Shown piece after piece: positions 34,601 to 40,170 of a DNA stretch of 64,000 bases. The notes beneath the pieces were generated by a model. The model made no database searches. It was given only the letters and a program-made list of their open reading frames with translations, and was not told where the DNA came from. How positions within the stretch are numbered: position 1 is the stretch's first letter; every line of letters begins with the position of its first letter. The stretch is taken from assembly GCA_963836205.1 (NCBI GenBank), contig CAWIIV010000007.1, positions 128,001-192,000 on the forward strand, written 5' to 3'. This DNA comes from an uncultured Acidimicrobiia bacterium. GTDB taxonomy: Bacteria; Actinomycetota; Acidimicrobiia; Acidimicrobiales; AC-14. The translations under genes were made by a program, and so were the position numbers.

Positions 34601-34883
34601 TCTTGGTGGCCGAGCCCTTGGGGCACAGGCGCCCCCTCGATATCGGGCTGTCGGGGTCGCCCTCGATCTGGGTGACCTTCCCGTCCTTGACGAACACCTT
34701 CTGGCCGCAGCCGACGGCGCAGTACGGGCAGACCGACTGGACGACCTTGTCGGCGTCCTCGGTGCGGGGATGCACGTGGTCGGTGCGCTCGGACCGGACG
34801 GCCCGGCCGAGGCCGAGGGGGTCGCCCTCGGTGAGCTGCCGCACCACCGGCCACTTCCCGAGCAGGCGCCCAAGTTCGGTCAC
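31665..34883 (-). CDS. Selenocysteine-containing formate dehydrogenase alpha subunit (UGA at 34311-34313)
   Basis: CPYCAVGCG, LCPKG, IENQARI-[TGA]-HSSTV in frame with downstream ORF (GSNMAECHP, LRGHASIQG). Confidence 0.93.
34282..34313 (-). promoter_or_regulatory. Sec codon and putative bacterial SECIS
   Basis: TGA followed after 12 nt by the hairpin GTGCCCA-GTT-TGGGGAC; atypical AGT/TTG/ACA codons there. Confidence 0.7.
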
Positions 34884-34931
34884 TGGCGCCAAGTCTGCCC
34901 CCCCGCCCGCGCTCGTGACACCCCCTTTCGG

Positions 34932-34953
34932 TGTCGCAGGTGGTCGGTAGGCT
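34932..34953 (+). promoter_or_regulatory. PafBC/RecA-NDp-type promoter of Uma2 copy 2
   Basis: TGTCGC-N10-TAGGCT, 6 nt before GTG. Confidence 0.68.
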
Positions 34954-34959
34954 TGGGTT

Positions 34960-35666: not shown

Positions 35667-35720
35667 TTTGGTCGCCACCCGGCGCAGTGTCTTGGGCGTA
35701 TCAGGCTGGATGGTCGCGGA

Positions 35721-38697
35721 TCAGGCTGGCTTGTCGGGCGGTTGGAGCTGGTCGCGGACCGTTCGCTGGTCTCCGGTGAGCCGCTCGTCGGTGGCGGAGA
35801 GCAGCCAGGCCAAGTCGCGGTCGTAGACGTCCTGAGCGCTTTGCTCGTTGTCCAGATCCCGGAGGGTGTTGAAGAGGTTCCAGGCGGAGACGGTCGTGTC
35901 GGGGTGCTCGGCACCGAGGACCCGCCGCCGGACGTCGAGCACCTCCTCGTGCAGGGCCCGGGCCCCGGCCGCGTCTCCCACGGCCCGCAGGGTCACGGCC
36001 AGGTTGTTGGCCGACATGAGTGTGTCGGGGTGCTCGGCACCGAGGACCCGCCGCCGGGCCTCGATCACCTCCTCGTCCAGGGCTCGGGATCCGGCCGCGT
36101 CGCCCACATCCCGTAGAGTCGCGGCCAGGTTGTTGGCCGACATGAGGGTGTCGGGGTGCTCGGCCCCGAGGATCCGCCGCCGGGCCTCGAGCACCTCCTC
36201 GTGCAGGGCTCGGGCCCCGGCCGCGTCGCCCACATCCCATAGAGTCGCGGCCAGGTTGTTGGCCGACATGAGGGTGTCGGGGTGCTCGGCCCCGAGGATC
36301 CGCCGCCGGGCCTCGAGCACCTCCTCGTGCAGGGTGGGCTCGGGCCCCGGACGCGTCGCCCACAGCCCGCAGGGTCTCGGCCAGGTTGCTGGCCGACATG
36401 AGGGTATCGGGGTGTTCGGCACCGAGCACCCGCCGCCGGGCGTCGAGCACCTCTTCGTTCAGGGCCCGGGCCCCGGCCGCGTCGCCCACAGCCCGCAGGG
36501 TCTCGGCCAGGTTGCTGGCCGACATGAGGGTATCGGGGTGTTCGGCACCGAGCACCCGCAGCCGGGCCTCGAGCACCTCTTCGTTCAGGGCCCGGGCCCC
36601 GGCCGCGTCGCCCACGGCCCAGAGGACCACGGCCAGGTTGCTGGCCGACATGAGTATGTCGGGGTGCTCGGCACCGAGGACTCGCCGACGAGCGTGGAGC
36701 ACCTCCTCAAGCAGGGCCCGGGCCCTGGCCGCGTCGCCCACAGCCCATAGGGTCACGGCCAGGTTGTTGGCCGAGGTGAGGGTGCCGCGGTGCTCGGAGC
36801 CCAAGGTGTCCCGGGCCAGGATGAGGACCGCTTCATCGATACCGCGGGCGCGCCGGAAGAGGCCTTGGCCCGACAAGAGGAGGCCCACGGTGGCCCCCAA
36901 CTCCCAGGCGGATCTGGTCGCCGACCCGGGCGCCGTCGCCCGCGCCCGTTCGAAGAGGGCCTCGGCGTGGGAGAGGCAGGCCGTGAGGAGGGGCCAGCGA
37001 GAGGGGTCGCGGCACGTATCGGGGTTCATGACCCTGAGGAGGCCGGCGCATGCGGTCGCCAAGTCGGCGCTGTCGCCGGGCGACTGGGCCCGGAGAAACG
37101 CGGCCAGGACGCGGTGCATGGTGCCGAACATCGGGATGGCGGACCCTTCCGCGGGGCGGGACACGAGGGAGCGGCTGACGAGGGTGGCCCGCACCCCTCG
37201 ATCGCTCGCCTCGGGCCCGAGGGCTTCCAGCACGGCCACCGGGACAGGTGCGGGGGCGAGCTGGGCCAGCAGCCGGGCCGCGACCTGGACCGCGGGCGGC
37301 AAGTTCGCGTACGACATCGCCAAGGCCTCGGTGATCCCCCGGAGCGATCCCGGCGGCACGACGCCCGCCAGGGCCCGGGCGCTCTCGTCCAGTGCCGTCA
37401 CGGGGTCGTCGGCGTCGGCCATGGCCACCAGCTCGTCCGGCTCCAGCACGCCCTCCCGCAACGAGGCGTTGAGCAGCTCAAGGGCGAGTGGCAGGTGGCC
37501 CACCCACTCGGCGACGCGCCGCCGGGCGTCGGGAAGGATGTGGCGATGCGGCGGGAGTTCGCGGACGAGGAGGGCGACCGCGGGCTCGGGCGCCAGTGGC
37601 TCCACGCGCAGCGACCGAATCCCGGCGATCACCGATTGGTGGGCCCGGGAGGTCACCAGCAGGGCCACGTCGCCCATGGCGGGACACCAGGTGGTGAGGG
37701 GTCGTTGAGCGACATCGGGCCCCGGCTCGGGGACGTTGTCGACCACGTACAGGACGGGCGGGCCGGTCCGGTCGGCGAGGGCGGTGCCGGCCTCCCGGGC
37801 GACGTCTCGGCCGGCCTCCCGCATCGCCAGTAGGGGTGGGGTGTCCGGCACGAGCGTGGAAAGGATGCCGTGGAGCTGCTCCTCCAGCCGGTCGTCGCCG
37901 TCGGCGTTGACCCAGAACACGCCCCCCCGGTACCCGCGCCCGAAGCGGTGGACGTACTCGGTGGCCAGGCGGGTCTTGCCGAACCCGCCGCCTCCCTCCA
38001 GGGCGCCGGTGAGGGCGGCGGCGGTGATGTCGCCCCGAAGGGTGGAGAGCTGGTGGTGAATCCGCCACAGCTCGTCGGCCCGACCCACGAAGGCGTCGCC
38101 GATCGACACCCGTAGCTCACCGGGGAGGAAGTAGCGGGGGATGCCCGCCAGGCTGCGGGCGGGCGGCACGGCCGACTCCTCGAGCACGGTCTCGCGCACC
38201 GCGACCAGCTCGCTCAGCCCCGCGAGACGCTCCCCCACGGTGGGCGTCACCGTGCCCAGGCGCCGCTCGACCAGCGCCACCAGAGCCGCCGTGTCCGTCG
38301 CCGGGCACCAGTTGGTGGCTCGCAGGCGCGGCGGGAAGCGGTCGAGCTCGTCGGCGTGCTCGGTGCCCACCGCGACCACCACCGGCTCCAGCGCCTCGGC
38401 CCGCCGGTCGGGCGGCGCCCCCCGCTCGACCAGGGCATTGAAGGCGGCGAGGGCCACGTCGAGCTCCCGGAGGCAGTACCAGCGGCGGAAGTAGGTCGGC
38501 TCCGCGAACACCACCACCACCCGGGCTCCGAGCAGGGCGTCGACGATTCCCGACGGGACCTGTTCGCCCGCCTCGACGTCGGCGACGTCGAAGTAGGCCC
38601 GCGACCCCAAAGCCTCCGCCAGCGCACGGGCCTCGACCGCCGATGCCTGCCGGGAGTAGGAGATGAAGACCTCCCACCCCGCCGCCGGCGCCGCCAT
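35721..38697 (-). CDS. TIR - STAND/NB-ARC NTPase - TPR protein (NLR-like); 4-nt insertion at ~36332
   Basis: TIR (VFISYS, WYCLRE), Walker A GGGGFGKT, Walker B VLYVVDNV, HLPLAL, MHRV, ~8 42-aa repeats LGAEHPDTLMSANNLA. Confidence 0.88.
35880..36830 (-). repeat. 126-bp coding tandem repeats (TPR array)
   Basis: GGGGTG(C/T)TCG recurs at 35901, 36027, 36153, 36279, 36409, 36535, 36661. Confidence 0.92.
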
Positions 38698-38704
38698 GTC
38701 GGGC

Positions 38705-40170
38705 CTACGACTCCGGGCGGAGCGTGGGGAAGAGGATCACGTCGCGGATGTTCGACGCGTCGGCGAGGAGCATGACCAGGCGGTCGATGCCGATGCCCAG
38801 GCCGGCCGTCGGCGGCAACCCGTACTCGAGGGCGCGCAGGTAGTCGTCGTCGACCGCCATGGCCTCGTCGTCACCACCGGCCTTGGCCGCGGCCTGGGCC
38901 TCGAACCGCGCCCGCTGGTCGTCGGGGTCGACCAGCTCGGTGAAGGCGTTGGCCAGCTCCCGGCCGGCCACGATGGCCTCGAAGCGCTCGGTGAGCTCGG
39001 GGTCGTCGCGATGGCGGCGGGCCAGGGGCGAGACCTCGGCCGGGTAGTCGAGGACGAACACCGGCCCCCACAGCTTGGCCTCGGTGGTCTTCTCGTAGAC
39101 CTCGAGGACGATCTTGCCCGGCCCCCACGAGTCGTCGGGCTCCACGCCCACCGACCGGGCCACCGCCCGCAGGTCGTCGATCGCCATGTGCACGTCGACG
39201 TGGACCCCGGCGTGCTCCTCGACCAGGTCGGTGAGGGTGGCCCTCCGCCAAGGCGGGGTCAGGTCGAGGTCGCGGCCGCCGTAGGTGAGCCGCAGGCCGC
39301 CGGCCGCCACCACCGCCACCTCGGCCACCAGCTCCTCGGTGAGCTTCATGAGGTCGACGTAGTCGGCGTAGGCCTCGTACAGCTCGAGCATGGTGAACTC
39401 GGGGTTGTGGCGGGGAGAGATGCCCTCGTTGCGGAACACCCGTCCGATCTCGAACACCTTCTCGAAGCCGCCCACCACCAGCCGCTTGAGGTAGAGCTCG
39501 GGGGCGACCCGCAGGTAGAGGTCGAGGTCCAAGGCGTTGTGGTGGGTGACGAAGGGCTTGGCCAGGGCGCCGCCGGGGATGGGGTGGAAGATCGGCGTCT
39601 CGACTTCGACGAAGCCCCGATCCTCCAGCCGCCGGCGCAGGAGGCTCACCACCCGGCTGCGGAGGAGGAGGGTGTCGCGGGCCTCGGGCGTGGCGAACAG
39701 GTCGACGTACCGTTGGCGGTAGCGGGTGTCGGGGTCGGCCAGGCCGTGCCACTTGTCGGGGAACGGGCGGCGGGTCTGGGCCAGCACCACCCAGTCGTCG
39801 ACCTTCACCGACAGCTCGCCCCGACGGGTGGTCATGACCTCGCCGGAGACGCCGATCCAGTCGCCCAACGAGAGCGCGGCGAAGTCCTCGAACCGCGGCG
39901 TCGCCCCGGACCGGGCGAAGAGCTGGATGCGGCCGGACGAGTCGGCCAGCGTCCCGAACGCGACCTTGCCCTGGTCCCGCCGGAGCATCAGCCGCCCCGC
40001 CACCGACGCCGTCTCTCCCGTCTCGATCCCCGGCGCCAGGTCGCCCCACCGCTCGTGGAGGTCGGCCGCGGTGTCGGTGCGGTCGAACCGGTACGGCACC
40101 CCTACCGAACGGTGACGTTTTCGGTGGCCAGGGCGACGTTTTCCGTCACCGGTTCGTCTGCAGCGGTCAT
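38705..40170 (-). CDS. lysS: Lysine--tRNA ligase class II (core ORF 38705-40099; probable ATG at 40170 with a 1-nt indel)
   Basis: [42 protein letters not shown] overlaps coaX stop. Confidence 0.96.
40106..40156. repeat. Palindromic repeat family copy at the lysS 5' end
   Basis: CGAAC-GGTGACG...CGTCACCGGTTCG, aligns with the reverse complement of the 20446 unit. Confidence 0.8.

Follow-up and report, generated by a model that had tools for sequence, protein, structure and literature searches.

In the present study, a scar between lysS (lysyl-tRNA synthetase) and fdh (formate dehydrogenase, alpha subunit) was analyzed in a 64-kb stretch of DNA (64,000 nucleotides, hereafter the window) from an uncultured Acidimicrobiia bacterium (assembly GCA_963836205.1, contig CAWIIV010000007.1). 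Our analysis revealed that this feature is real and old, and that a single gene, apparently derived from the equivalent slot of a relative, was added there without an integrase. Compared with seven relatives, the genome carries 3194 nucleotides (nt) of extra DNA placed in the last 83 nt of lysS, and this insert consists of a second lysS end, a gene with TIR and TPR domains (the TIR gene) and a piece of fdh (~66-85 nt). Read along the minus strand, the locus begins with the functional lysS (38705-40099, minus strand; Pfam tRNA-synt_2, 2e-88, and anticodon OB fold), the protein of which is 89-94% identical to those of the genus relatives and the last 27 codons of which form the first repeat copy (38711-38793, minus strand; repeat search, family D8). 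The TIR gene (35721-38697, minus strand; start at 38697; Pfam TIR_2, TPR_10 and TPR_12) begins 8 nt after the lysS stop and is followed by a short non-coding stretch of ~20-40 nt and by a decayed fdh 5' stub (~35600-35684, minus strand) comprising a leader of ~25-45 nt and ~14 codons. This stub abuts, with zero spacer, the displaced native end of lysS (lysS 3' stub, 35511-35599, minus strand), which consists of 27 codons and the stop and is decaying as well. At the illegitimate junction between the two (35599/35600), fdh codon ~14 is joined to lysS codon ~-27, and the alignments stop there. Two nucleotides further lies the end of an inverted Uma2-family gene (34960-35508, plus strand; Pfam Uma2, 3e-23), followed by the real fdh (31665-34883, minus strand; NCBIfam formate_DH_Act), the 5' segment of which that is matched by the stub spans 34834-34901 (minus strand, local alignment). 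The same gene order had been read in a first-pass annotation of the window, together with the statement that the unit 'lysS 3' end / cargo / fdh 5' end' is present twice with differing cargo, and both were borne out, the order by sequence reading and Pfam.

Over 83 nt, the lysS stub and the functional gene end are 82% identical. Their starts lie 3194 nt apart, and the stub was recovered at E = 3e-16 when the whole 4.05-Mb genome was searched. A 15-mer at the left edge of the repeat occurs genome-wide only at the two lysS copies. The codons of this exact 15-nt block, common to both copies, are identical in seven genus sequences (six relatives and the genome's own lysS), and an identical block given this much divergence could be due to chance or to lysS codon conservation. 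The functional lysS protein ends in RPES followed by the stop, while RPEA is found at this place in all six genus relatives and in the stub. It appears that the functional end is probably donor-derived, at least at its very end, and the last codon weakly favors a crossover in or upstream of the lysS repeat. When 89 positions were compared, eight were unique to the stub and two to the functional end. Relative to the genus consensus the stub carries five residue changes (L>P, L>P, S>L, L>C and F>L), and the phenylalanine lost in the last of these is invariant in 28 intact lysS C-termini (27 relatives and the own functional copy). At third codon positions, the lysS genes of this genome and of its nearest relatives diverge by 0.17-0.20. 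Roughly estimated, the time over which the stub has drifted is similar to that since the lineage split from them.

An exact 20-mer is common to the fdh stub and the start of the real fdh, and is absent from the rest of the genome. Local alignment of the stub gave a score of 30, compared with a null of 11.1 +/- 2.0 (maximum 25), and none of 4000 random genome segments reached 30. Identity was 51/66 (77%) to the genome's own fdh, 52/66 to that of relative G007 and 64/81 to that of G004, and the scores against the fdh starts of relatives G007, G004 and G003 were 33-35, versus 30 for the own gene. In addition, the stub has the codon CGG found in the relatives where the own fdh has GGG, and a motif that the relatives conserve is altered in it by the residue changes P>S, R>C and Q>H. 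The lysS and fdh stubs are thus decaying pseudogene pieces. The identity of 82-84% initially estimated for both copies is accurate for the lysS stub and too high for the fdh stub, and the approximate lengths given there (~28 lysS and ~13 fdh codons) became 27 codons plus stop and ~14 codons. The fdh stub had also been described as a copy of the fdh promoter; only 25-45 nt of leader are present, hence a promoter is not demonstrated.

The real fdh alpha subunit gene begins at the GTG at 34883, differing from the listed open reading frame (ORF) start, and its product scores 1948 bits against formate_DH_Act, the model of the actinobacterial formate dehydrogenase (cut-off 1400). It contains one in-frame TGA (selenocysteine) at codon 191 (34311-34313), common to the orthologues, and therefore ORF lists made with table 11 split or misplace fdh. 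A long spurious ORF (31420-35244) overlaps the gene in another frame.

Sixty relatives were searched, giving 61 genomes with the one examined here. lysS was found in 58 of the 61, and the fdh N-terminus (E <= 1e-30) in 37. The lysS-fdh junction had been taken to be conserved, and adjacency was indeed seen in part of the relatives: lysS adjoins a selenocysteine-type fdh in six of the seven genus relatives and also in G028, a member of a second genus, while the seventh genus relative (G006, 66% complete) matched neither gene. A further 22 genomes hold both genes, on different contigs in 21 and 2.1 Mb apart in G047; many of these assemblies are fragmented, so that non-adjacency is unproven. Four of the 22 (G008, G015, G017 and G035) are unpublished genomes, and the adjacency counts do not rest on unpublished genomes. 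The content of the interval differs across the relatives, in line with the variable cargo that had been anticipated. It is a spacer of ~90 nt in G007, ~260 nt in G004 and ~340 nt in G028, it measures 645-750 nt with an inverted Uma2 gene in the same place and orientation in G003, G001 and G005 (83-88% DNA identity), it reaches 3.2 kb with two FG-GAP repeat genes in G002, and it is 3.8 kb long in the present genome.

The flanks of the slot are collinear with all relatives. G003 aligns unbroken, from its real lysS end through Uma2 to fdh, against window positions 35601-30001. Therefore, the original end of the gene is the copy of lysS at 35511-35599, which has kept its original neighbors. Moreover, the 2-nt junction between stub and Uma2 is the same as that between the lysS end and Uma2 in G003. 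No second lysS 3' end was found in the seven fetched relatives (word size 7), each of which has one copy. Uma2 diverges from its counterparts in the relatives about as much as the flanking genes do, and it matches only the PADLOC candidate family PDC-S03 (1e-14). These comparisons show Uma2 to be the older resident of the slot, and the TIR gene, without a homologue at E <= 1e-20 in 57 family genomes, is the newcomer.

Some further observations concern the slot in the relatives and Uma2. The slot of G002 (L013 524-3495) holds FG-GAP genes of 473 and 558 residues as listed, and neither a defense-like gene nor stubs were detected in it. The lysS-fdh spacer contains a palindromic element of ~55 nt, with arms of 23 nt and a loop of 24 nt, which is dispersed in this genus (L014 445-514 in G007; L009 451-506 and 1102-1157 in G005). 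It gave 78 matches in G007, 87 in G001 and 28 in G005, while those in this genome and in G003 were all weak; it is at times tandem, and two copies flank Uma2 in G005. A second case of Campbell-type integration was considered for the G005 slot, where a 56-nt direct repeat (89%) surrounds Uma2, and was rejected because the repeat is this dispersed element. The G004 spacer (L011 470-696) is filled by three tandem copies of a 71-nt unit, 77-100% identical and spaced 73 and 83 nt. In the window, a second Uma2-like sequence (27508-28059, plus strand, 74% DNA identity to the slot Uma2) has a polyprenyl synthase gene on one side and a pfkB kinase gene on the other; its in-frame stop and scrambled C-terminal part make it a probable pseudogene. 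Further Uma2-like matches lie on contigs C25, C6, C15 and C14.

The TIR gene fills the whole insert. The domains found in it are TIR and TPR, and a Walker A motif is visible in its sequence. The TIR-STAND-TPR cargo originally annotated (STAND, signal transduction ATPase with numerous domains) is thus right as to its TIR, P-loop NTPase and TPR domains, with the correction that the gene appears to be frameshifted after about codon 788, unless there is an assembly error in the repeats. At the insertion site (36325-36340, minus strand), four extra bases near 36331-36334 make one TPR unit 130 nt long versus 126 nt. Past this site, no Pfam match was obtained for the listed ORF, while the alternative frame 35721-36422 holds four more TPR_10 units and can be aligned with the closest homologue (P0004, 907 residues) over residues 700-906 of the latter, its non-repeat tail included. 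Hence the last four to five TPR repeats and the conserved tail are out of frame owing to the +4 insertion, and the true stop would be at 35721-35723. The listed TIR ORF, extending to 35701, is open by chance only, with a third-position G+C of 0.65 there versus 0.92 upstream.

No homologue of the TIR gene at E <= 1e-20 was present in any of 57 family genomes. Its best relatives are metagenome proteins from a collection of 5.8 billion, 60-68% identical, with P0003 and P0004 at 67-68%. The G+C content of the gene is unremarkable. It matched no PADLOC family, the models of anti-phage STAND/TIR systems such as Thoeris and Avs included, and reached no NCBIfam cut-off: FxSxx_TPR gave 260 bits (cut-off 300) through the TPR part only, and the scores for ThcB4 and FxsC_Nterm were far under their cut-offs. 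From its domains the gene may be regarded as a putative defense gene. A plasmid or phage origin was considered and set aside, as only two weak plasmid matches (29-33% identity) and no phage match were obtained. Distant homologues are located on 5 genome contigs (33-39% identity) and 16 metagenome contigs (36-59%), and the homologues at these 21 loci are too distant to serve as donor. On one of the metagenome contigs (L029), a homologue with 41% identity from an organism of lower G+C content lies between 134-nt direct repeats (379-512 and 4324-4456), 87% identical and with a spacing of 3945; it is the sole case among the 21 loci, many of which are on short contigs.

Regarding recombinases, the integrase family PF00589 gave no match in the insert or elsewhere in the window. 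Genome-wide it gave 24 matches, the nearest 10.4 kb before the window start. The claim that the window lacks integrases and transposases therefore stands for PF00589, and for transposases the check covers the ORFs of ~21.5-49.5 kb only. A self-comparison of the genome gave 18 isolated short direct-repeat pairs, 0.8-20 kb apart, of which 13 were examined (those left out being C8:45496, C15:177147, two on C23 and C24:233184). In five pairs, as in classical islands, one copy adjoins or is overlapped by a tyrosine integrase gene, and a sixth pair encloses one such island. Since these islands were picked up by the same repeat screen, they serve as a positive control for the absence of an integrase at lysS. 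The integrase gene nearest to the scar, at a distance of 45.9 kb, belongs to an island (C7:116500-122500, L050) that lies 5.5-11.5 kb before the window start; this island carries the tyrosine integrase, a Schlafen/AlbA_2-HATPase_c_4 gene and ISL3 transposase remnants between 155-nt direct repeats (84.5% identical).

A second integrase-less case was found at C17:18748-18935 / 22040-22227 (L045 1749-5228), where a 188-nt duplication, 93% identical, corresponds to the 3' end of an HhH-GPD (DNA) glycosylase gene. The insert of 3.1 kb has a G+C of 0.65-0.68, compared with 0.72-0.78, and contains a DUF4062 / AAA / TPR reading frame, apparently broken into three ORFs. The empty site with one repeat copy is present in G006, G007 and G001. 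The C-terminus encoded by the stub is native, with residues identical to those of G007, and the functional glycosylase gene has a foreign tail. A possible third case is the ssb locus at C12:40604-47408 (L046 1105-7909), where 327-nt direct repeats, 98% identical and holding the 3' half of an accessory ssb gene, flank 6.1 kb of lower-G+C DNA with a 1067-residue DUF4062/TPR/KAP-NTPase gene. Here the stub is upstream of the full gene, a geometry unfit for simple insertion, and none of the 7 genus genomes has a counterpart of the region, hence there is no empty site to compare. Another repeat pair (C17:49092/50642), around a PIN/HTH pair, was dropped, as the repeat is multi-copy in several genomes and the pair is syntenic in relatives. 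The three cargo proteins (lysS, C17 and C12) are alike in architecture, although BLASTP found no similarity among them.

The mechanism we favor for the lysS scar, with about even confidence, is the entry of a circularized piece of a relative's locus by one reciprocal crossover. The ancestor would have had the arrangement lysS - inverted Uma2 - fdh, as in the three sampled relatives. A piece of ~3.2 kb would have come from a related organism with the TIR gene in the same slot, right after lysS and before fdh, and would have spanned from 83 nt before the lysS stop to ~45 nt into fdh. The joining of its ends into a circle would have created the fdh/lysS fusion at 35599/35600, and the circle would have entered by a single homology-dependent crossover in the short lysS segment (Campbell-type), for which a recombinase gene of its own would be unnecessary. 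Subsequently, lysS would have been completed by the incoming 3' end, with the new gene stacked before the old cargo and the two orphaned stubs left to drift. Possible origins of the circle would be end-joining of the 3.2-kb fragment, illegitimate excision or, in the donor, loop-out from a tandem duplication. The genome has two Ku genes, and therefore the joining of fragment ends into a circle is plausible.

As for the donor, it may well have been a relative with the TIR gene directly between lysS and fdh, since the fdh stub fits the relatives' fdh at least as well as the genome's own, the functional lysS ends in RPES and the TIR gene follows lysS so closely. The homology segment is duplicated in direct orientation, and its chimerism is legible in the last codons only, the functional copy being atypical and the stub native. 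A homology segment duplicated on both sides of an insert would be the direct product of a single crossover with a circle, while a two-point exchange between a linear fragment and one duplex would lead to replacement and not to duplication. This topology favors the circle model already proposed in the first-pass annotation. Of that model, the duplication and the fit to a same-slot donor were supported by our data, while the circle itself, where the crossover took place and which organism was the donor are what we infer from them.

Several results weigh against this reading. Sliding-window identity across lysS revealed no foreign tract upstream of the repeat, so that the crossover could not be placed, and for a RecA-type crossover an imperfect homology of 83 nt is short. 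The donor arrangement lysS-TIR-fdh was not found, neither in the 57 family genomes, which are without the gene, nor at the 21 homologue loci, near which tblastn (E <= 1e-5) detected none of lysS, fdh and Uma2. At C17, which otherwise speaks for the model as a second case in this genome, the match to a neighbor-gene stub is not significant (score 12 versus a null of 11.5). None of the 19 Logan pieces listed, out of 45 mapped to 34500-39100 (three runs, one study), spans 35599/35600. Finally, sequence alone does not separate the circle from homology-anchored illegitimate recombination between sister chromosomes, and each model requires a single illegitimate joint, between fdh +45 and lysS -83, as well as one exchange by homology.

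Homology-facilitated illegitimate recombination, or 'C-terminal displacement', the main rival, is conceivable and yet rather doubtful in our view. Linear donor DNA would have paired via lysS and displaced the native end downstream, and its far end (fdh +45) would have been joined illegitimately to a second chromosome copy, 83 nt before the lysS stop. The sections available of Kirchberger et al. (2017; PMC5361080) propose this route for orphan 3' fragments in effector/immunity arrays of type VI secretion systems (T6SS) and in rhs loci, and also indicate that, in the species tested, it is rarer than ordinary recombination by orders of magnitude. The anatomy seen here would be expected from this route too, as the functional end would be of donor type, the native end orphaned and only one joint illegitimate, and its anchor could span all of lysS rather than 83 nt. 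However, the lack of a detectable foreign tract in lysS upstream of the repeat counts against it as well, and duplication, unlike replacement, would need two recipient copies. We consider it quite improbable that a tyrosine integrase acted in trans or has since been lost, with the lysS 3' end as attB and the element bringing the substitute gene end. Such elements typically enter the 3' ends of genes and supply a substitute end, the scar left would be similar, and both the exact 15-nt block at the left edge of the repeat in the two copies and the 24 PF00589 matches in the genome could be cited in its favor. On the other hand, all of these matches are outside the window, the insert is taken up by a single gene, which begins 8 nt past the lysS stop and ends ~20-40 nt short of the fdh stub, islands of the integrase type in this genome keep their integrase beside a repeat, and an fdh fragment abutting the att core is unexpected in an attP arm.

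An in-place tandem duplication of lysS(-83)...fdh(+45), with the cargo of one copy later replaced or lost, must be regarded as very unlikely, even though the fdh/lysS fusion exactly resembles the joint of a tandem duplication. At least two further events would be required, and a swap of cargo would need a crossover in the 66-85-nt stub. Furthermore, the stub-Uma2 junction is the native 2-nt arrangement of G003, so the TIR gene was never in that copy, and the CGG codon of the fdh stub is that of the relatives and not the GGG of the own fdh. Lastly, it is extremely unlikely that two strain variants of the slot were joined in tandem by the assembler. It is true that the genome is a metagenome-assembled bin of 25 contigs, 88.6% complete, and that the listed pieces leave 35599/35600 uncrossed, as already mentioned. 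However, the stubs carry disabling changes and are 18-23% different from the functional copies, and are therefore not live alleles, which makes a chimera of live strain variants unlikely. In addition, the assembler would need a real sequence link from fdh +45 to lysS -83, and the nearest of the listed Logan pieces, 35450-35600 (one difference) and 35613-35866 (no differences), match both sides of the scar, in runs that may be the source sample and hence are not independent.

The scar has parallels in known systems. The integration of e14 into icd of E. coli K-12 is an example of entry into the 3' end of a protein gene with provision of a substitute gene end. As in integration of this type, a duplicated gene end brackets foreign DNA at lysS and the displaced end survives as a stub. 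The lysS insert differs in that it lacks an integrase, an excisionase or any other element gene, carries a single-gene cargo and has a fragment of the downstream chromosomal gene at its far end. A recombinase gene inside the insert and next to an att repeat, which defines an integrase island, is absent.

Insertion with long target duplication was reportedly described as early as 2000 by Nobusato and colleagues. Furuta, Abe and Kobayashi (2010; PMC2853133), in the part of their article accessible to us, treat such insertions, the repeats of which often span a gene start or stop, and list an actinobacterial example (Clavibacter). Of the four features by which insertions are recognized in that part of the article, three occur at lysS: direct repeats of >30 bp (83 nt at 82%), a repeat that is single at the site of the relatives (seven fetched) and an insert of <20 kb without a mobility gene (3.19 kb). 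The fourth, homologues of restriction (R) and modification (M) genes in the insert, is missing; it defined that screen and not the rearrangement itself. Thus, as in the cases presented there, a defense-like gene was inserted without a mobility gene between direct repeats that are single at the empty site of a relative. Unlike in those cases, the cargo is a TIR/NTPase/TPR gene rather than a restriction-modification system, the repeats are old and diverged (82%), and the insert carries a stub of the downstream neighbor, a detail that finds no mention in the accessible part of the article.

The C-terminal displacement of Kirchberger et al. (2017; PMC5361080) leaves orphan 3' fragments in rhs, CDI (contact-dependent growth inhibition) and T6SS arrays, as the available sections of the paper describe. 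The resemblance to them lies in incoming DNA that shares the conserved 5' part of a gene and adds a new 3' end with further genes, in the old end being orphaned downstream and in modules piling up at one locus. The difference is that lysS is an essential housekeeping gene with functionally equivalent ends, so that displacement is a by-product without any change of toxin specificity. Defense hotspots between core genes without mobile-element genes are the subject of Johnson et al. (2023; PMC10250203) and Oliveira et al. (2017; PMC5635113), of which portions were likewise available. The lysS-fdh slot is similar to them in being a variable slot between conserved genes, lacking a recombinase and changing its content among close relatives. 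Yet for those hotspots scarless replacement by flanking homologous recombination is inferred in the portions concerned, whereas the lysS slot added cargo and kept the joint. As far as the available parts of PMC2853133 and PMC5361080 go, the lysS scar belongs to an already described class of recombination and involves no new principle, and the high novelty implied by the first-pass annotation could not be upheld. What is particular to it is the fused neighbor-gene stub that records the donor context, the stacking beside an older resident and the recurrence within the genome.

A broader proposal, which we put forward as speculative and improbable, is that single large genes combining an effector domain, a P-loop NTPase and TPR repeats travel between related bacteria as recombinase-free homing cassettes. 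If true, each cassette would carry the 3' end of a conserved host gene and would loop out as a circle via the flanking repeats, and the circle would re-enter the same gene of a relative by one crossover, so that slots such as lysS-fdh would stack and not swap their cargo. Two to three such cassettes would then be present here, at lysS, at the HhH-GPD glycosylase gene and perhaps at ssb. A 'virus-like life cycle' is said to have been proposed for restriction-modification genes by Kobayashi's group, and the homing-cassette idea would extend it to genes resembling those of nucleotide-binding leucine-rich repeat (NLR) proteins.

Many defense genes occupy variable slots between conserved genes, without mobile-element genes that would explain their arrival. 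Ordinary replacement by flanking recombination is traceless, while at lysS the joint was preserved, and it points to a same-slot donor and to cargo added beside the old. The younger C17 case suggests that this route was used repeatedly. The scar thus provides a concrete, datable example in an uncultured high-G+C lineage, and the 5' stub of a downstream gene joined to the 3' stub of an upstream gene offers a signature with which other genomes may be searched.

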